A DNA stretch of 15,993 nucleotides, from NCBI GenBank assembly GCA_016839785.1, contig JAEOTQ010000174.1, positions 1-15,993 on the forward strand, written 5' to 3'. Position 1 is the first letter of the stretch. Every line of letters begins with the position of its first letter. Both the position numbers and the translations under genes were made by a program. The notes under the pieces were generated by a model. It was not told the origin of the DNA and made no database searches. It was given only the letters and a program-made list of their open reading frames with translations. Positions 1,478 through 15,198 of this stretch are shown piece after piece. This stretch comes from Candidatus Hodarchaeota archaeon. Its GTDB lineage: Archaea > Asgardarchaeota > Heimdallarchaeia > Hodarchaeales > Hodarchaeaceae.

Positions 1478-1807
1478 CTATTCATTTGAAAATTGATCAG
1501 GAATAACCATCGATGAGATAGAACTGATGAACTCTGATGTTTCATCACCTTGATCGATAGTAATCACCCGATGAGTTAAACCTTTAACTCTTTGTAAATT
1601 TTGGGCAGCATTGGTAGCAATAAATCGTGAACGAACACCTGCAGATTGACCAATCCATAAGAAAATTTTCTTCAATGCATTATCAAGTAATACATAAACA
1701 GATTCCCTCTTTAATTTTTGAGAGGGATCTTCATACGGCTCGAGCTCTCCAGATACATCATTAGATATCTGGAAAAGTGATTTTTCATCATCATTTGTTA
1801 CTAACAT
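1478..1807 (-). CDS. Single-domain gelsolin-like protein (Asgard ProGel-type actin regulator candidate)
   Basis: 109 aa. LKRESVYVLLD...KIFLWIGQSA...RFIATNAA...RVITIDQGDETSEF matches the gelsolin repeat consensus (L.S..vfvLD...iyvWiG..A...v..v.QG.E...F). Confidence 0.88.
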   Translation of the reverse strand: MLVTNDDEKSLFQISNDVSGELEPYEDPSQKLKRESVYVLLDNALKKIFLWIGQSAGVRSRFIATNAAQNLQRVKGLTHRVITIDQGDETSEFISSISSMVIPDQFSNE

Positions 1808-4027: not shown

Positions 4028-4846
4028 ATGTTGTTGCAGTTTGAATCCCTTGCCACAGATTCTCCAGCTCCCATGATACTCTTCTGGATAATTGTATTCA
4101 TAATTAGTTACGGTTTGATTGATTCAAACTCAATGAGCAAAAAACGTCGTATTCTCCTTTATCTCACTACTATTTTCTTTACGGGAGTAATTCTGGGAGG
4201 AATTCCCAACGTAGTTTTACCGATCGAATATACAACAGATGTGATATCAAGTAAAGGTGATCTGGTCGATACTTTGCATCCACTAGCAATCTTTTGTATG
4301 ATAACTGGATTCTCACTAGTCGTTGGACGAATCTTTTGTGGTTTCGCGTGTCCTTTAGGAGCATTACAGGAATTAATCTCACTTATAAACTTTCCATCGG
4401 ATGTTACGGAATATCAAAAGAAGAAATTCCACATAGAAGTATCTTCACGCACTACAACTAGAATCCGATGGATTTTTCTTGGTATTTTGTTGGTTACTAG
4501 TTTATTAGGAATTTCTTTTTTTTCCAAGATTAATCCGATGTCAGGATTCTTGTTCACAATAGGTTTATCATTATTTAGTATGTTTATTATAATAGCTTTG
4601 AGTTTTTTTCTGTATAGACCATGGTGCAGGTTTTTATGTCCCTTCGGTGCAGGGTCAGGTCTCTGTAGCCGGTTTGCAACAATAAAATATCGAAGAACGA
4701 GTGCTTGCACAGATTGTGGAAAATGTGAGATAGTATGTCCCACGCAGGAGGCAGGAAGAGATAGTAAGAAAGAAGAATGCTATTTCTGTAATCGATGTCT
4801 TCATGTGTGTCCCCACGATGCTATACATTATGATCTGGAAATTTGA
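4028..4846 (+). CDS. Membrane-bound 4Fe-4S binding protein (NapH/MauN/YccM polyferredoxin type)
   Basis: Two CxxxCP motifs (GRIFCGFACPLG, RPWCRFLCPFG) next to TM helices, plus two C-terminal ferredoxin motifs (CTDCGKCEIVCP, CYFCNRCLHVCP). Confidence 0.9.
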   Translation: MLLQFESLATDSPAPMILFWIIVFIISYGLIDSNSMSKKRRILLYLTTIFFTGVILGGIPNVVLPIEYTTDVISSKGDLVDTLHPLAIFCMITGFSLVVGRIFCGFACPLGALQELISLINFPSDVTEYQKKKFHIEVSSRTTTRIRWIFLGILLVTSLLGISFFSKINPMSGFLFTIGLSLFSMFIIIALSFFLYRPWCRFLCPFGAGSGLCSRFATIKYRRTSACTDCGKCEIVCPTQEAGRDSKKEECYFCNRCLHVCPHDAIHYDLEI

Positions 4847-4990: not shown

Positions 4991-5827
4991 TTAAGTCCAT
5001 GGAGGCAATTCGTCAAGAACTTCGGGAGAAATAATGCGTTCGAATAAAGGAATCGATCCAAGACCAACAAGAGTTCCCACAAGTAACGCAGGTAAGTAAG
5101 CAGCCATATTGTCAGAGAGTAGAGGCGAAATTCCCAACGTGGCGTTCCAAAACAAGTGCCAAATTAATGAAGGGAGTAAAGAGCTAGTTTTATAATAATA
5201 ATAACCCCAGGGAACAGCAACAAGGAATGAAAAGGTACATAAGACTATAGTAAATAGAATAAATTCAAAAAAAGCCACCTCACCTGATATATATCCTTTC
5301 AGAGGGGTAGGAAAGTGCCAAAGGCCAAAGAAAAATGCTTGTATCAGATTCGCTTTCCAGAAGTGCTTTTTAGTAACATCCAAAGATAGACGAAGAAAGA
5401 TTCCACGAAATAAGCTTTCTTCCATCATGACATTGACAATATTTGTTACAAATGTGAAGTATAGAAATGTCATTGTGACCTCAGAAAAATCCCAAGCAAG
5501 GAAATCTCCAGCAATAAATGTATAGACAAGACGCATAGAGATAATTGAAAGGAGAACAAATCCTAAACTGAAGAAAATATTGTAAAAGAAATATTCTCTT
5601 TTTATGCCGATATCTGCAAGGGTTTTTCCCATAAAAATAAGTAAAAACAAGATTAGAACTACAGAAAATGATTTAGAAAGGAGAATATCTCCCCATTCCT
5701 CATCGAGGGTCAACCAGAAGATATCAAGCATTTTAAAAATCAGAAAAAATAAAAACAGTCCAATTATAAGAAGTAAAGACCTGTATTTCTCAGGAAAAGG
5801 TGAATCTTTTTGTAACACTCTTATCAC
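4991..5827 (-). CDS. CPBP family (Rce1/type II CAAX-like) intramembrane glutamic endopeptidase
   Basis: Multi-TM protein with EESLFRG (EExxxR), FFGLWH (FxxxH) and WHLFWN (HxxxN). GTG start at 5827. Confidence 0.9.
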   Translation of the reverse strand: MIRVLQKDSPFPEKYRSLLLIIGLFLFFLIFKMLDIFWLTLDEEWGDILLSKSFSVVLILFLLIFMGKTLADIGIKREYFFYNIFFSLGFVLLSIISMRLVYTFIAGDFLAWDFSEVTMTFLYFTFVTNIVNVMMEESLFRGIFLRLSLDVTKKHFWKANLIQAFFFGLWHFPTPLKGYISGEVAFFEFILFTIVLCTFSFLVAVPWGYYYYKTSSLLPSLIWHLFWNATLGISPLLSDNMAAYLPALLVGTLVGLGSIPLFERIISPEVLDELPPWT

Positions 5828-6979: not shown

Positions 6980-8605
6980 ATGGGAGAAAGACACCATAAA
7001 AGAAAAGTAATTTTTGTTACCGTATCGTTAATATTGAATTTAGGCATCTTATTTTGCGTTGGAATAATCTCTGATTCATCAAGGTACTCCATAGACAGTG
7101 TGAAAGGGATTGTAGAGGAAGATGAGTTACGTATGAAATACATTTTCAGTCGAGTCTTAGGCGGAGGCAAGGAAGATGTTGGTGAAGGAATTGGAATTGA
7201 TTCCCAAGAACGAATTGTGATCACAGGTAATACAGAAACAGCTGGCTTTCCAGTACTCAATGCTTACGATTCCTCTTATAATGGCCCCAGTGAAATCTAT
7301 TTTGAAGGAGACGCGTTTATTGCTAGTTTTTACCCTAATGGTACTCTCTACTGGAGCACCTACTTCGGAGGATCGCAAAGTGACTTTGGAGCTGATCTAG
7401 TAATTGATAGCCAAGATAATATCATCATTACTGGTAGTACCGATTCTACCGACTTTCCAGTATTAAATGCTGACGATTCCAGTCATAATGGGAATGAGGA
7501 TGCATTTTTGGCAAAGTTTACTTCAAATGGTGAGCTTGTATGGAGTACTTTTGTTGGGGATATTGGACATGAATTTGGAATGGGAGTAGCTCTCGATTCA
7601 TCAGATAATATCTTTGTGACAGGACGATGGGAAGTGCCTCCAATTGGTAATTATTACTGGGATGCATATGTGGCAAAATATTCCCCCAATGGGGTCTCTC
7701 AATGGATCCAAATCCTTGGAGGCAGTCAACTGGATTATGGGATGGGAATTACCCTTGATACACAGGATAATGTGGTGATCACAGGAATTACAAGTTCTAG
7801 TGACTTTCCAAATGATAATGTCTACCAAGGAAATCAACAAGAGATTTTTGTTGCCAAATTAAATACTAGTGGAGATTTGGTCTGGAGTAATGTTGTAGGA
7901 GGCGGAGAAAATGATTTTTGTCGAAGCGTACAAACAGATGTAGAAGATAATATTATCCTCGCAGGATGGACATTTTCCTCTGATTATCCAACAGTAAATG
8001 CCGAAGATTCACTATTTGACGGATCAGAGGATATTATAATCTCTAAATTCGATCCAAATGGATCAATGCTCTGGAGTACCTATCTTGGGGGAAGTCATAA
8101 TGATATGACAGAAAAAATTCATGTTGATGATGTGGGGAATATCTATGTCAGTGGGGAGACCCTTTCAATGGATTATCCACTCACAAATACCTCCCAGTCT
8201 TACTTATTGAGTGATTCATTTCAAGCCTTCCTAACCATTCTTAATCCAGAGGGATTTATCCTATGGAGTGAAACATTTGGCGCCACCCAAGGAAATTATA
8301 TATCGGATAGAGGAAAAGCACTCGTAGTCGACTCCAAGAAGAATGTCATGATTGTGGGGAGTACTAGTTCGAAATATTTTCCCGTCACTACAAATGACGT
8401 AGTCACAGATGACGCAAACGTCTTCATTTGTAGTCTATACAATCCTTTTGAAGAACGACCATTAATGCCCACTTCAACAGAACCTACTACAACTGAAACC
8501 GATGATAGCACTACTGAAACAGAGACAACAGTCAATTTAACCAATGGATTTTCAGTCTTCATCGTGCTGGTTATCTTTCTAATACCCCTCTGGAAGAAAA
8601 GGTAA
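6980..8605 (+). CDS. Cell-surface SBBP-repeat (seven-bladed beta-propeller) protein with a Thr-rich linker and C-terminal TM/basic anchor
   Basis: N-terminal basic plus hydrophobic signal. Seven repeats of W.t.lGG...D.G..i.iDs.dNiiitG.T.S.DFP...DAF.aK...nG. A PTSTEPTTTETDDSTTETETT linker is followed by NGFSVFIVLVIFLIPLWKKR. Confidence 0.9.
   Translation: MGERHHKRKVIFVTVSLILNLGILFCVGIISDSSRYSIDSVKGIVEEDELRMKYIFSRVLGGGKEDVGEGIGIDSQERIVITGNTETAGFPVLNAYDSSYNGPSEIYFEGDAFIASFYPNGTLYWSTYFGGSQSDFGADLVIDSQDNIIITGSTDSTDFPVLNADDSSHNGNEDAFLAKFTSNGELVWSTFVGDIGHEFGMGVALDSSDNIFVTGRWEVPPIGNYYWDAYVAKYSPNGVSQWIQILGGSQLDYGMGITLDTQDNVVITGITSSSDFPNDNVYQGNQQEIFVAKLNTSGDLVWSNVVGGGENDFCRSVQTDVEDNIILAGWTFSSDYPTVNAEDSLFDGSEDIIISKFDPNGSMLWSTYLGGSHNDMTEKIHVDDVGNIYVSGETLSMDYPLTNTSQSYLLSDSFQAFLTILNPEGFILWSETFGATQGNYISDRGKALVVDSKKNVMIVGSTSSKYFPVTTNDVVTDDANVFICSLYNPFEERPLMPTSTEPTTTETDDSTTETETTVNLTNGFSVFIVLVIFLIPLWKKR
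7246..7480 (+). repeat. Intragenic coding repeat between SBBP blades 1 and 2
   Basis: 7246-7273 ctttccagtactcaatgcttacgattcc versus 7453-7480 ctttccagtattaaatgctgacgattcc: 25 of 28 positions identical. Confidence 0.75.
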
Positions 8606-11424: not shown

Positions 11425-14400
11425 TCACTGCTGGTCAGTCTGCTGGATTTCGCGCCTGAACTCGTCTATACACTGATCTTTTTCAACATTTGGAAGCACT
11501 TTCCAGAGAAGTAGTTGTTGTCGCATAATACCAATAAATCGTTTAACTAAGGCTTGCCAAGCCTGTAGTACTCCTTCTATGCGGGTTAGTTTGATAAGAA
11601 GCTTCCAATGGCCTCTCTCTTGGTCATAATAAGCAGATATAACAATTGTCTGAATAATTCCCATATCAAAAGGAGCTAGATTGACCGTTGTAATGAGTTG
11701 CTTTTCTTTGCCTTCGATATTCTTGAATACAATTGGACTCCTTACGAAAAAAGGACCTCCTACACTTTCCGATTCATAAATTAGGAAAAATTCTCTCAAA
11801 AATACAAGCATTCCTTCTGCTTCTCTCTCAGTAGATGCTACAAACGGTAAAAAGATATTCCATTGGGTGCCATCACCTTCAGGAGAGGATCTAATTCGCC
11901 AAATTCTCCTTTTAGAAGGAACAGAGATCATACTAGATTGTCTAAGTGGTGCAATTAGACCTACTAATAGACCAACACCACTGAAAGCAAGTGAAATAAG
12001 AACAGCACTAGAAGAATAATTTACAGAAAACGAGCCTGAAAGGAGACCAAAAGCTGAGAAGATTCGAATAAATGTGACACCTCCCATATATCCAAACAAG
12101 GAACCAATTATTGCGTGCATGAGAAATTCAGCAAAAAATATTCCAAGAATACTTGATGGTGACACGCCCAATGATGTGAAAATTGAAATTTCTCGCCTTG
12201 AGTCGTAGACAGTACTTAAAGATGTGTTACTAATAAGAAGAATTGCAATTGATACGGGGATAGCTACCTCTAGAAAATTACTCTCAAACTGAGCACGAGT
12301 GGAGGTGAAAAGGGTCAATGAAAATGTTAAGAGGGCAATTCCTGAGAAATTTAATATTGTTCGCGACTTCTGTCGCTTCATACGAAGAAGACCAGTTTTT
12401 AATGCCACAAATAACACCCCTGTCTGGTTAGATGTAATGAAATGAGAGCCTAAGGTTTTTGTACGAAGTTGTTTAAGAAATCCAGAAATTTCATGTAACA
12501 GCACATACACAATTAAGAATATTGAGAGAACATTAACCAATCCTAGAAGGGTAAATACTAGGTGGGGAGCTACCTGAAAGCCAGGATGGATCAAATAAAA
12601 GAAACCAAATGCTAAAGTATAAGTGAGACATGAAACACCAAGCCATTTTCTGTCAGAATCGAAATCAAATAGAAATAGAGTCAGTGTGAACGAGAAAGGA
12701 ATGAGAAAACAAGCAAAAAGTAGGGCAGTGTTTGTACTATCATTGAGAATGCTTCGAGCATGTTTAAGAGAAGTAAATGACAGTTGACGGGCTGTATTCA
12801 TTTCAAGTATTGCGTTTGAATATTGGTATTGTTCAATTAGTGAATTAATATTCGTTAATTGAGAAGAGACATTTTGAAACGCTTCCTCAACATCCTGATC
12901 ATAAATACCGTGAGAGGCATACCAGTTGACATATGTTTGAGTCAGAGAATGAAGATCTTTGGATGTAACAAACGGTGAGATACCTAAATTTCGGAATTCA
13001 CCCTTTCCCACTTCAAAACCATTGCCTCGAAGAGCATCTGAACTGGAATTTGTGGCATAAACAGCTAGAATTTCATCAGAAAATGTACCTAGTAAGCTAG
13101 ATCGAGCATCAGGGGGTACAAAAATTAAACTAATTGAATCAGAATTCTTAAAACCATAAAATGGAAGAGAAGCCCTTGATACAGGGTCAACAACTTGATA
13201 TGAAAGCTCTTGGGTTGAAATAAATCTGTCATAAGGATGAGAAATGTCGAATAGACCAAGTGTACCACAAGTGAACACAGTAGGATTAATCGTAATCTCC
13301 CTGGTAACTAATTTCTTCGATTGATCAAAAAAGACTCCATAAGGGCCAATATTATTGGCTTGCACTAATTTTCCCCCAGAGTTGAAGGAATAAGCCTCTA
13401 CAGTGAATTCAAGGGGATTATCAGGCTGAGAGGAAGAAATGCCATTAACTTGAAAGAAACCATTCTCATCGGTAAACGTATAGTAAGCGTAATAGCCAGA
13501 ATTACCTGTTTTCGGATCACGAGAAGTAATTCTAATCAACGCGTTCGGAACTGTATTGAGCAGTAAAGAGGTTTCATCGTAGGTTTTACACGAACCAGAA
13601 ATAATACCATAACCCACATGCCTATTAGGTTTGACAGAGAACTCCTTGGGTTGTAAATCCAGATAATTGTCAAGCTGACTGTCATTACTCAGCTGAACTA
13701 GAGCACAAATTGAAAAAATGACTTGAGATTTAAGATTTTCAAGTACGAGAGAATCAGGCAAATCAAAAGGGGTATTAAAGCGATAACGAGAGGATTCTGA
13801 AGAAAAAAGAGATAAAGCTAAGACATTAGACGCGATAAAAGGTTCTTGATCCCCTACAAAAGTAAAAGGCGCTATTTCCTCAAATTGATCCTCAATATTA
13901 ACATATGAACTGACACTAAACGGATATTCATTTCTAATCTCAGAACTCATCTCATTGGCATATTGAAGAAATAAGTCCCCAACACTCTTTAACCTTCTAT
14001 ACATATTATTACCAGTTGTGTATCGAAGCTTATATTTGTACAGATATCCATAGGGATTAATGCCGATAGTATTGGTGGTAGCTGACAGGTCAAGGGATAG
14101 GAATAATTTAATCCCTCTATCCAGATTTAGCAGATCATAATTCTCTGAAACAAATTCCCGGGCACCTGCAGCCGCCTGATTATGCCCAGATAATGCTAGA
14201 AACATGATTGTTTTCTGAGGAATAATATCGTTGTCCTTCAGGATTCGGATAAGCTCTAAAAGAGTAGCAATACCACAGGCCTCATCAGCTCCGGGGGATA
14301 AGGCAGGAACAACGGAAGAAGAATCAAAATATGCCGATAATACAATGATTTCCTCTTCCAATCCAGGTATAATTCCCATGATATTATTAGCATCAATAGT

Positions 14401-15198
14401 TTCCCATGCGATATCAGAGTAAATCGTAACCGTATGAGATAGTTGATTACTTAGGGTTCTTATGGTTCCAACCAACGTTTCATTCTCAATGTAGACACGG
14501 GGAAATTCAAGAGGGATATCAATAGATTTAGTGTTTGCTTCATACCGATTGGTATTATCTGGTGCTAAATAAATGACTCCTTTTGCTCCTAGACTTGCAG
14601 CATTTATCCAATTATCTTGAGAATTAAATTCAAGAACAATCATGGATCCTTCAATCTCTTTTCCGTTCAAAGCAGAGTATTCGCCTGACCCTCCATAAAC
14701 CAGTCTCCCTGAGACTCCACCTATGGGAGTCTTACTGGTGTGAACAGAATTAGGAACAAGAGCATACGCAGTATAGTTATCTCCGTCAATAGAGATTTTT
14801 GTTTCTCGATCAAGGGGGACAAGATGAGGATACGAGAGGGCTTGAACGTTAGTTAGATTTTGATCCTCAAAGAATTCCTGAATATAATCCTTCGCAAGGT
14901 TATATCCTGGATAACCAGTTACACGACTCCCGAAACTTGAGAAATTGTTAATATGGGAGAATATATTTTGAAAATAGGAGGAATTTATCTGATCTGCAAA
15001 GAAATCATAATCAATCACTTCTTGCAAATCAGTACTAAAATCCTCAATATAAGAAACAACATTAGTTTCACTTGTTACAGGGTCTCTAGTAACATTAAGT
15101 GAAGTTTCAACAGCAAATGTGGGTGATAACAAGACGAAAAATGAAATAAGTACACAATAGAGGAAAAATCGGTGCACTAGGAAATTTCTGACACGCAT
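11425..15198 (-). CDS. Large membrane protein: signal peptide, PA/M28-peptidase-like ectodomain, carboxypeptidase-regulatory-like beta domain, TM bundle and C-terminal FtsX/MacB-type permease domain
   Basis: GSRVTGYPGY, a PA-like GRLVYGGSG insert, NIMGIIPG...IIVLSAYFDS...PGADEACGIATLLEL and FLSLDL give an M28 fold. YTFTDENGFFQVNGI is a beta-domain motif. RMKRQKSRT...NTSLSTVYDSRREISIFTSLG...IFFAE is the FtsX/MacB signature. Confidence 0.88.
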   Translation of the reverse strand: MRVRNFLVHRFFLYCVLISFFVLLSPTFAVETSLNVTRDPVTSETNVVSYIEDFSTDLQEVIDYDFFADQINSSYFQNIFSHINNFSSFGSRVTGYPGYNLAKDYIQEFFEDQNLTNVQALSYPHLVPLDRETKISIDGDNYTAYALVPNSVHTSKTPIGGVSGRLVYGGSGEYSALNGKEIEGSMIVLEFNSQDNWINAASLGAKGVIYLAPDNTNRYEANTKSIDIPLEFPRVYIENETLVGTIRTLSNQLSHTVTIYSDIAWETIDANNIMGIIPGLEEEIIVLSAYFDSSSVVPALSPGADEACGIATLLELIRILKDNDIIPQKTIMFLALSGHNQAAAGAREFVSENYDLLNLDRGIKLFLSLDLSATTNTIGINPYGYLYKYKLRYTTGNNMYRRLKSVGDLFLQYANEMSSEIRNEYPFSVSSYVNIEDQFEEIAPFTFVGDQEPFIASNVLALSLFSSESSRYRFNTPFDLPDSLVLENLKSQVIFSICALVQLSNDSQLDNYLDLQPKEFSVKPNRHVGYGIISGSCKTYDETSLLLNTVPNALIRITSRDPKTGNSGYYAYYTFTDENGFFQVNGISSSQPDNPLEFTVEAYSFNSGGKLVQANNIGPYGVFFDQSKKLVTREITINPTVFTCGTLGLFDISHPYDRFISTQELSYQVVDPVSRASLPFYGFKNSDSISLIFVPPDARSSLLGTFSDEILAVYATNSSSDALRGNGFEVGKGEFRNLGISPFVTSKDLHSLTQTYVNWYASHGIYDQDVEEAFQNVSSQLTNINSLIEQYQYSNAILEMNTARQLSFTSLKHARSILNDSTNTALLFACFLIPFSFTLTLFLFDFDSDRKWLGVSCLTYTLAFGFFYLIHPGFQVAPHLVFTLLGLVNVLSIFLIVYVLLHEISGFLKQLRTKTLGSHFITSNQTGVLFVALKTGLLRMKRQKSRTILNFSGIALLTFSLTLFTSTRAQFESNFLEVAIPVSIAILLISNTSLSTVYDSRREISIFTSLGVSPSSILGIFFAEFLMHAIIGSLFGYMGGVTFIRIFSAFGLLSGSFSVNYSSSAVLISLAFSGVGLLVGLIAPLRQSSMISVPSKRRIWRIRSSPEGDGTQWNIFLPFVASTEREAEGMLVFLREFFLIYESESVGGPFFVRSPIVFKNIEGKEKQLITTVNLAPFDMGIIQTIVISAYYDQERGHWKLLIKLTRIEGVLQAWQALVKRFIGIMRQQLLLWKVLPNVEKDQCIDEFRREIQQTDQQ

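Follow-up and report, generated by a model that had tools for sequence, protein, structure and literature searches.

The window analysed here is a stretch of 15,993 nucleotides (nt) of contig JAEOTQ010000174.1 from a Candidatus Hodarchaeota archaeon (assembly GCA_016839785.1). Its minus strand carries, between positions 11425 and 15198, a whole open reading frame (ORF) of 1257 amino acids (aa) plus stop, the translation of which corresponds to the short form of a membrane protein combining a head with the fold of M28 peptidases and an FtsX-type membrane module (M28-FtsX). Another 1257-aa protein, 98% identical to this product, is labelled Hodarchaeales. A sequence-only reading had singled out positions 13760-14390, equivalent to ORF residues 270-480, as an M28 domain with replaced zinc ligands, resembling the eukaryotic pseudo-peptidases nicalin and nicastrin and perhaps acting as a non-catalytic substrate-binding receptor joined to a membrane machine in an Asgard-like genome. 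The 37-residue string quoted in that reading was found in the ORF translation, and the Asgard assignment agreed with the labels of the closest proteins and loci (Hodarchaeales or Heimdallarchaeota).

All features of the protein lie on the minus strand. A hydrophobic window at residues 6-24 indicated an N-terminal signal peptide or membrane anchor (residues 1-30, positions 15109-15198), followed by an extracytoplasmic head with M28 fold and a probable inserted PA domain (residues ~60-510, 13669-15021), delimited on the basis of an AlphaFold2 (AF2) model and fold searches. Within the head, the M28 core (residues 272-482, 13753-14385) was matched by Pfam PF04389 Peptidase_M28 (E = 1.9e-12, 47.8 bits for a cut-off of 21.3). 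The borders of the PA insert (residues ~134-255, 14434-14799) are approximate, since they were drawn from a Pfam PA match below the cut-off (residues 162-229, E = 0.1, 13.2 vs. 23.9 bits) and from structural alignments of the head to PA-bearing M28 enzymes, which span 378-402 residues; some relatives carry PF02225. The head is followed by two beta-sandwich domains (residues 521-615 and 627-740, 12979-13638; AF2 model and Foldseek) and by a helical stalk running into the membrane (residues 741-843, 12670-12978; model helices at 741-761, 768-789 and 793-843). Three transmembrane (TM) helices (residues ~826-916, 12451-12723; hydrophobicity and model) precede the FtsX/MacB-type module, which consists of an amphipathic helix, TM1-TM4 and a coupling helix (residues 922-1098, 11905-12435; Pfam FtsX and VIA structural comparison), and a conserved cytoplasmic alpha/beta domain (residues 1104-1257, 11428-11889; AF2 model) closes the protein. 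The match to PF02687 FtsX covered residues 982-1085 (E = 1.4e-7, 32 bits, cut-off 25.5), and around eight TM helices were predicted for the whole protein, the FtsX module included; the membrane machine anticipated for the M28 domain was found as an FtsX-type module.

The AF2 model of residues 40-530 reached a predicted local distance difference test (pLDDT) value of 93.7. When this model was compared to the PDB with Foldseek, the top matches were the PA-bearing aminopeptidases 2ek8 (E = 1.2e-23), PaAP, BSAP and 3iib (E = 1e-23 to 1e-20), followed by the transferrin receptor and GCPII. VIA was run both on the Foldseek top 1000 (rank-50 Z of 27.0) and widely over 48,161 representatives (rank-50 Z of 18.4), and gave the highest scores for BSAP (Z 31.0, 378 residues aligned), AAP, the Aeromonas/Vibrio aminopeptidase (Z 29.6-29.7, 268 residues aligned, 2.4 A), and 2ek8 (Z 28.7), with glutaminyl cyclases (26-29), SGAP (~28), the transferrin receptor (27.7), GCPII (24.9), M20 enzymes (19-22) and GPAA1 (7w72_A, 19.6) also retrieved. 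Both homology and the modelled alpha/beta fold identify the predicted head as a true M28 domain. A fold search of this kind, against nicalin, nicastrin and active M28 enzymes, had been proposed by the sequence-only reading: the M28 fold was recovered, the best matches were active M28 enzymes, and neither nicalin nor nicastrin was among the best 50 listed entries in the Foldseek pdb, VIA top-1000 or VIA 48,161-representative lists, below which both may still rank.

In order to compare the active-site region to that of AAP, the metal ligands of the latter were taken from the literature to be H97, D117, E152, D179 and H256, with E151 the general-base Glu; titles of PDB entries (E151H, D118N, M180A, S228A) bear out the AAP numbering only, and not the identity of the ligands. 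HMMER alignments to AAP paired H97 with Y290, D99 with D292, E151 with H339 and E152 with N340, placing Y290-F291-D292 (14323-14331) at the HxD motif and H339-N340 (14179-14184) at the EE motif. D305 (14284-14286) was the sole acid able to stand for the bridging D117, in a loop one residue shorter than that of AAP, and the gap near it falls differently in the HMMER alignments to AAP and to 2ek8. The equivalences D179 to D370 (14089-14091, at a strand end of the model) and H256 to N475 were assigned from the motifs L-D-[LM] and [YF]-x-T-P-x-D together with strand positions in the model, the printed HMMER alignment being two residues out of register at its end, at D370; F474-N475-T476-P477-F478-D479 (13762-13779) occupies the place of YHTxxD. 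The strings on which the ligand replacement had been proposed were all present (AYFD at 289-292, SGHNQ at 337-341 and FNTPFD at 474-479), and the replacement itself (YFD for HxD, HN for EE, FNTPFD for YHTxxD) was upheld. The resulting ligand set (Y290, D305, N340, D370 and N475) keeps two of the five AAP ligands and replaces three, and the general-base position holds H339 instead of Glu. As judged from these residues, a canonical di-zinc site would be unable to form in the head of the window protein.

The same positions were then counted in the query and the best 120 of 268 matches (121 aligned sequences, five of them partial). Glu was never found at position 340 (AAP E152), where N (52 sequences), W (28), H (14), F (10), Y (7), G (4), D (2), A (2), Q (1) and C (1) were observed, and a single sequence had His at position 475 (AAP H256). 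Position 290 (AAP H97) was Y in 64 sequences, H in 54, K in two and Q in one, while position 305 (AAP D117) was D in 83, E in 25 and another residue in 13. Conservation was far stricter at position 292 (AAP D99; Asp in 121/121), 339 (AAP E151; His in 114/121), 370 (AAP D179; Asp in 112/121), 452 (Glu in 112/121) and 471 (Arg in 108/121). Because of these counts the replacements are not due to chance: the first-zinc site, formed by the E152 and H256 positions, is gone family-wide, the H97 position is confined to His or Tyr rather than to His alone, and a new polar set (D292, H339, D370, E452 and R471) is conserved in the head. Moreover, 52 distant sequences shared 30-38% identity with the query in residues 40-530 vs. 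21-33% in residues 505-1257, which points to the head as the best-conserved part of the M28-FtsX protein.

The history of position 290 was followed on a FastTree phylogeny of 71 rows (P0001-P0075 without the near-identical P0002 and the five partial sequences, plus the two other paralogues of the window genome), on which His and Tyr switched at least 14 times, nine of them within the 44 Heimdall rows. Thirteen distant members, forming one clade, combined H290, D305, H339, W340, D370, G475 and H476. Their last His lies one residue past the canonical H256 position, and compared with the Asgard copies these members may have kept more of a metal site.

These patterns bear on whether the head is still an enzyme. 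A non-catalytic head is plausible, and no firmer wording is warranted because the remodelled pocket is so strongly conserved. The main rival is a remodelled hydrolase, in which a single-metal or His/Asp site (H/Y290, D305, D370 and H339, with D292, E452 and R471) would cut a peptide, amide or other bond at the cell surface while the FtsX module regulates or feeds it; we regard this alternative as rather unlikely, yet deserving of serious consideration. The conservation of the pocket speaks in its favour, as do the combination of His290 with D305 and D370, which would complete a second-zinc site in roughly half of the members, and the clade with His at position 476. It is also favoured by the title of PDB entry 2anp, which reports the AAP E151H mutant as functional, and by the glutaminyl cyclases, which scored well against the head in VIA and illustrate that a single zinc can suffice for an M28 fold to function. 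On the other hand, the window protein itself has Tyr at position 290, so many His/Tyr switches are atypical of a catalytic zinc ligand, 13 of the 121 sequences have a non-acidic residue at position 305, and in AAP the site made by E152 and H256, lost here, is the one sufficient for activity.

Below the head, the AF2 model of residues 505-1257 (pLDDT 87.8) comprised the sandwiches, the stalk, three TM helices, the amphipathic helix, the FtsX helices and the cytoplasmic domain. The sandwiches resembled pilin/adhesin-type domains in Foldseek (E ~1e-4). The membrane module was most similar in VIA to HrtB (Z 13.8), FtsX (13.5), MacB (12.7), YtrF (12.5), BceB (11.1) and LolE (10.5), and by sequence profile it matched MacB (E = 3.4e-19) and LolF (E = 1.2e-14) in the PDB. 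The window protein lacks an extracytoplasmic core domain between TM1 and TM2, where its long paralogue has PF12704. The coupling helix, whose role is known from the structures of MacB and LolCDE, carries a motif (R-x-E-I...L-G-x-x-P) that showed little or no variation among the short and the long forms, and its conservation in the short forms fits continued coupling. Residues 1104-1257 were conserved family-wide and gave weak matches to helix-grip/START/Aha1-like folds (VIA Z 8-9, ~110-119 residues aligned). A complex prediction for short-form residues 830-1257 with a 200-aa FtsX protein from the long-form cluster scored 0.14 vs. a mark of 0.32, in a run made without controls.

Three copies of the gene were found in the window genome (84.5% complete): the one in the window, a second short copy (54% identity) and a 1513-aa long copy (50% identity). 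The latter aligned to query residues 17-971 and 973-1252, and the ~247 extra residues in between corresponded to MacB_PCD in Pfam. In the 71-row tree, the 19 short rows formed one clade (support 100) nested among Heimdall-group long forms and split into two subclades, of which the window genome holds one copy each. This topology indicates that the short form arose once within Hodarchaeales, when a ~1500-aa long form lost its MacB periplasmic core domain. The lack of both the core domain and conserved neighbours might suggest that the short form is merely a degenerating remnant without function, an explanation that we find barely credible: the frame of 1257 codons is intact, both subclades have been kept in the window genome, many invariant positions are common to short and long forms, and short copies occur in nine of the 22 genomes of the group.

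Gene neighbourhoods were compared in 21 loci (18 from public genomes and three from the window genome), 13 with long and eight with short forms. The long form was flanked by a DUF6785/DUF6784 protein and a ~630-aa membrane protein in all 13 long-form loci, one of which is from Bathyarchaeia. Ten of these loci also had, ~6 kb upstream, a 125-aa gene, a 200-aa FtsX protein and two ABC (ATP-binding cassette) ATPases, and two more showed one ABC ATPase at the edge of the locus; the two ATPases are present in the long-form cluster of the window genome as well. Neighbours of the long-form type were absent from the eight short-form loci, none of which had an adjacent ABC ATPase, and no ABC ATPase gene was found in the 15,993-nt window. 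In one short-form locus, a long-form cluster starts four genes downstream. The DUF6785 and 633-aa neighbours are distantly paralogous (hhalign 86%, E = 4.7e-6); a DUF6785 profile had no match in the PDB, and the Pfam OPT model (E <= 1) matched one gene on contig C89 of the window genome and neither the DUF6785 nor the 633-aa gene.

One long-form locus (L007; genome G000, contig C40, 28000-47600) displayed in order the 125-aa gene, the 200-aa FtsX protein, two ABC ATPases, an 808-aa gene on the opposite strand, the DUF6785/DUF6784 protein, the long M28-FtsX protein, the 633-aa membrane protein and a 226-aa gene, and ended in a pair of surface proteins that are paralogues, one of them weakly matched by TIG and PGF-CTERM; this gene order recurs in 10-12 other Heimdall-group loci. 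Among other long-form sequences, the C-terminal part of one from a related genome (G011:C96:52266-53147) had one in-frame TGA. A more distant paralogue in two related genomes, with open frames of 1644 and 1652 aa (G058:C104 and G029:C49), was matched only in the FtsX and C-terminal part, with 32-35% identity. A look for expression of the gene turned up no RNA record; two sequencing runs labelled metatranscriptomic, judged to be probably DNA, yielded one ~270-nt contig each inside the gene, at least 99% identical to it.

A phmmer search against 1.84 billion representatives retrieved 2706 proteins with E <= 1e-3, of which 1099 reached E <= 1e-30, each standing for a 50%-identity cluster, so that the M28-FtsX family is estimated at no fewer than 1099 such clusters from bacteria and archaea; similar fusions in other prokaryotes, already mentioned in the sequence-only reading, proved to be common among representative clusters. 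The best 150 matches were almost all 1430-1860 aa long, the short form being represented by one full-length cluster plus fragments. Source labels included Hodarchaeales/Heimdallarchaeota, Thermoproteota, Nitrososphaerota, Bathyarchaeia, Armatimonadota and Latescibacteria. Within the class of the window genome, of which 81 genomes were sampled, matches to the window protein at E <= 1e-30 were found in 13 of the 21 other genomes of its family-level group and in none of the 59 genomes from six other families; among the 22 genomes of the group, 12 had long copies. No description of the M28-FtsX family turned up in literature searches.

Taken as a whole, the reading that we favour, with moderate confidence, is that the zinc-less M28 head is a ligand-binding, non-cleaving site mounted on an FtsX-type module that is moved by ABC ATPases, the short form being a derived paralogue. 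Type VII ABC systems such as FtsEX, LolCDE and MacB use ATP for mechanical work outside the membrane. Because the pocket is the best-conserved part of the protein although the di-zinc site has been lost, it would serve to bind a ligand, most likely a peptide or protein end, rather than to cleave it. The head would sit on the two beta-sandwiches and on a helical stalk continuing into the MacB/FtsX-type (type VII ABC) membrane module, and cytoplasmic ABC ATPases would use ATP hydrolysis to shift the stalk, and hence the head, by mechanotransmission analogous to that of FtsEX, LolCDE and MacB. With no ATPase gene close by, the short form would need to draw on the ATPases of the long-form cluster, acting in trans. 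Several points weigh against this reading. A ligand, partner or activity is known for no member of the family, no ATPase lies beside the gene in the eight short-form loci, and a single set of small FtsX and DUF6785 proteins would have to serve the three paralogues of the window genome at its present completeness. Furthermore, 54 of the 121 members have His290, which with D305 and D370 makes a complete second-zinc ligand set, and H339 occupies a position at which a functional His has been reported for AAP; because of these two observations, the head may have a metal-dependent activity.

The relation to nicalin and nicastrin was evaluated with two profiles searched against the PDB, a broad one built from 80 family members and a core-only one built from the M28 core of 21 sequences taken from the loci. 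With the broad profile, the highest bit scores corresponded to 2ek8 (102.6; E = 9.9e-29), YwaD (75.2), AAP (53-57) and the transferrin receptor (50.3), followed by nicalin (47.7; E = 3.7e-12 over 222 positions), GCPII (~33) and nicastrin (~19). With the core-only profile, nicalin ranked second among PDB families (33.6 bits, E = 2.7e-7), after AAP (50.8-55.4) and ahead of 2ek8 (28.9) and nicastrin (15.6-19). Matches to nicastrin were marginal (E = 1e-3 to 0.08), and a profile of the C-terminal half of the core (residues 353-505) retrieved no nicalin and only two unrelated PDB entries (E = 0.48 and 0.7). From these scores and the failure of the C-terminal half alone to match, the resemblance to nicalin is best described as real homology that resides in the generic M28 motifs found in the N-terminal half. 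By these scores an active aminopeptidase was always closer to the head than nicalin, and a special kinship of the M28-FtsX head to nicalin or nicastrin is not supported. The likeness put forward by the sequence-only reading holds, therefore, as a significant profile match to nicalin, and fails as a specific one, given that active enzymes score higher and nicastrin is marginal. A search for stand-alone relatives among shorter proteins gave 26 matches, apparently all fragments from the M28-FtsX family, many labelled partial or on short contigs, with no free PA-M28 protein and no nicalin among them.

A specific kinship between the head and eukaryotic nicalin (or nicastrin), with the head as either ancestor or sister, seems to us extremely unlikely. 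Nicalin was significant with both profiles and ranked above 2ek8 with the core-only one, both are membrane-tethered proteins devoid of the zinc site, and the host of the window protein is an Asgard archaeon. However, AAP scored above nicalin with both profiles, 2ek8 and YwaD did so by far with the whole-head profile, nicastrin was never more than marginal, and the C-terminal half of the domain matched nothing by itself. The same M28-FtsX architecture is shared by Thermoproteota, Bathyarchaeia, Armatimonadota and Latescibacteria, was found in only one group among the sampled genomes of the class (13 of 21 other genomes vs. none of 59 elsewhere), and includes around eight TM helices and an FtsX module, in contrast to the single TM anchor of nicalin. 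An elaboration to which we assign very little probability is that the M28-FtsX head and the luminal domain of nicalin derive from one already inactivated M28 branch, with nicalin co-opted from a membrane-machine receptor of this kind and the core-less Hodarchaeales short form representing a stage at which the receptor was largely uncoupled from transport. Nicalin itself belongs to the BOS complex of the endoplasmic reticulum multipass translocon. That complex comprises TMEM147, nicalin and NOMO (PMC11186639); passages of PMC9630114 contained nothing about the M28 nature of nicalin. A NOMO-like identity for the sandwich domains was considered and rejected, as Foldseek and VIA listed only generic pilin/adhesin sandwiches.

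Other genes were annotated along the window. Upstream of the M28-FtsX gene and on the same strand, an ORF cut by the contig end (15353-15991, minus strand) had no Pfam match, its end consisting of a Pro/Ser-rich linker plus a membrane anchor; in the closest relatives (loci L009 and L010) its place is taken by a divergent 813-aa gene of the clostripain family (Peptidase_C11). A 109-aa ORF (1478-1807, minus strand) contained a gelsolin repeat (Pfam E = 3.6e-6), a eukaryote-like domain of actin regulators typical of Asgard genomes. At the opposite end, a protein cut by the contig end (3-788, plus strand) had DUF835 (E = 3.5e-17) ahead of a winged-helix DNA-binding domain. Further genes encoded a polytopic protein with several 4Fe-4S motifs (4028-4846, plus strand), a homologue of Rce1-like CAAX proteases (4991-5827, minus strand), and a 541-aa surface protein (6980-8605, plus strand) in which SBBP beta-propeller repeats (E = 4.9e-29) are joined through a Thr-rich linker to a hydrophobic anchor at the C-terminus.

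If the favoured reading holds, the M28-FtsX family would add an unstudied and very common version of the type VII ABC systems, the working end of which is a dismantled two-zinc peptidase fold with a new conserved His, and the ligand of the head, once found, would establish a new role for ABC engines outside the cytoplasm of numerous uncultured bacteria and archaea. The head would also provide an independent case of an M28 peptidase turned receptor, next to those of nicalin, nicastrin and the transferrin receptor. With respect to eukaryogenesis, the outcome is mostly negative, the protein being neither a conserved Asgard trait nor specifically nicalin-like.

Among known systems, the best sequence and structure matches to the head are the PA-domain M28 aminopeptidases of Aneurinibacillus (AM-1, 2ek8), Bacillus subtilis (BSAP/YwaD, 6hc6) and Pseudomonas aeruginosa (PaAP, 8ac9), which share the fold and probably the PA insert, and AAP (1amp/1rtq), which shares the M28 fold; the equivalents of D99, D117 and D179 are kept in the window protein. 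Nevertheless, these enzymes are soluble or secreted and have an active di-zinc site, whereas in the window protein H97, E152 and H256 are replaced, E151 is a His, and the M28 domain forms the head of a polytopic FtsX-type membrane protein. The transferrin receptor (M28 plus PA; profile E = 5.9e-13) and GPAA1 (M28; VIA Z 19.6) likewise reuse the fold as a binding module without classical peptidase activity, yet they are eukaryotic single-pass proteins or subunits of the glycosylphosphatidylinositol transamidase, without an FtsX module. Nicalin (7tm3, 6w6l) and nicastrin (of gamma-secretase; 5a63) have, like the window protein, M28-fold ectodomains without a zinc site tethered to a membrane complex. 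They are eukaryotic, however, with a single C-terminal TM anchor and other partners (TMEM147 and NOMO, or presenilin, APH-1 and PEN-2), whereas the M28-FtsX family is mainly bacterial and TACK-archaeal, patchy in Asgard, and built on around eight TM helices with FtsX. Type VII ABC systems (MacB, LolCDE, FtsEX, HrtBA, YtrEF and BceAB) differ from the window protein in lacking its ~800-residue head (PA-M28, two sandwiches and stalk), the three extra TM helices N-terminal to the module and the ~150-aa cytoplasmic domain C-terminal to it, and the short form departs from them further by having neither the periplasmic core domain nor an adjacent ATPase. The long paralogue, with MacB_PCD, two nearby ABC ATPases and a small FtsX protein, resembles the MacB-type systems, and the four-helix FtsX module and the coupling helix are common to the window protein and to all of these systems.

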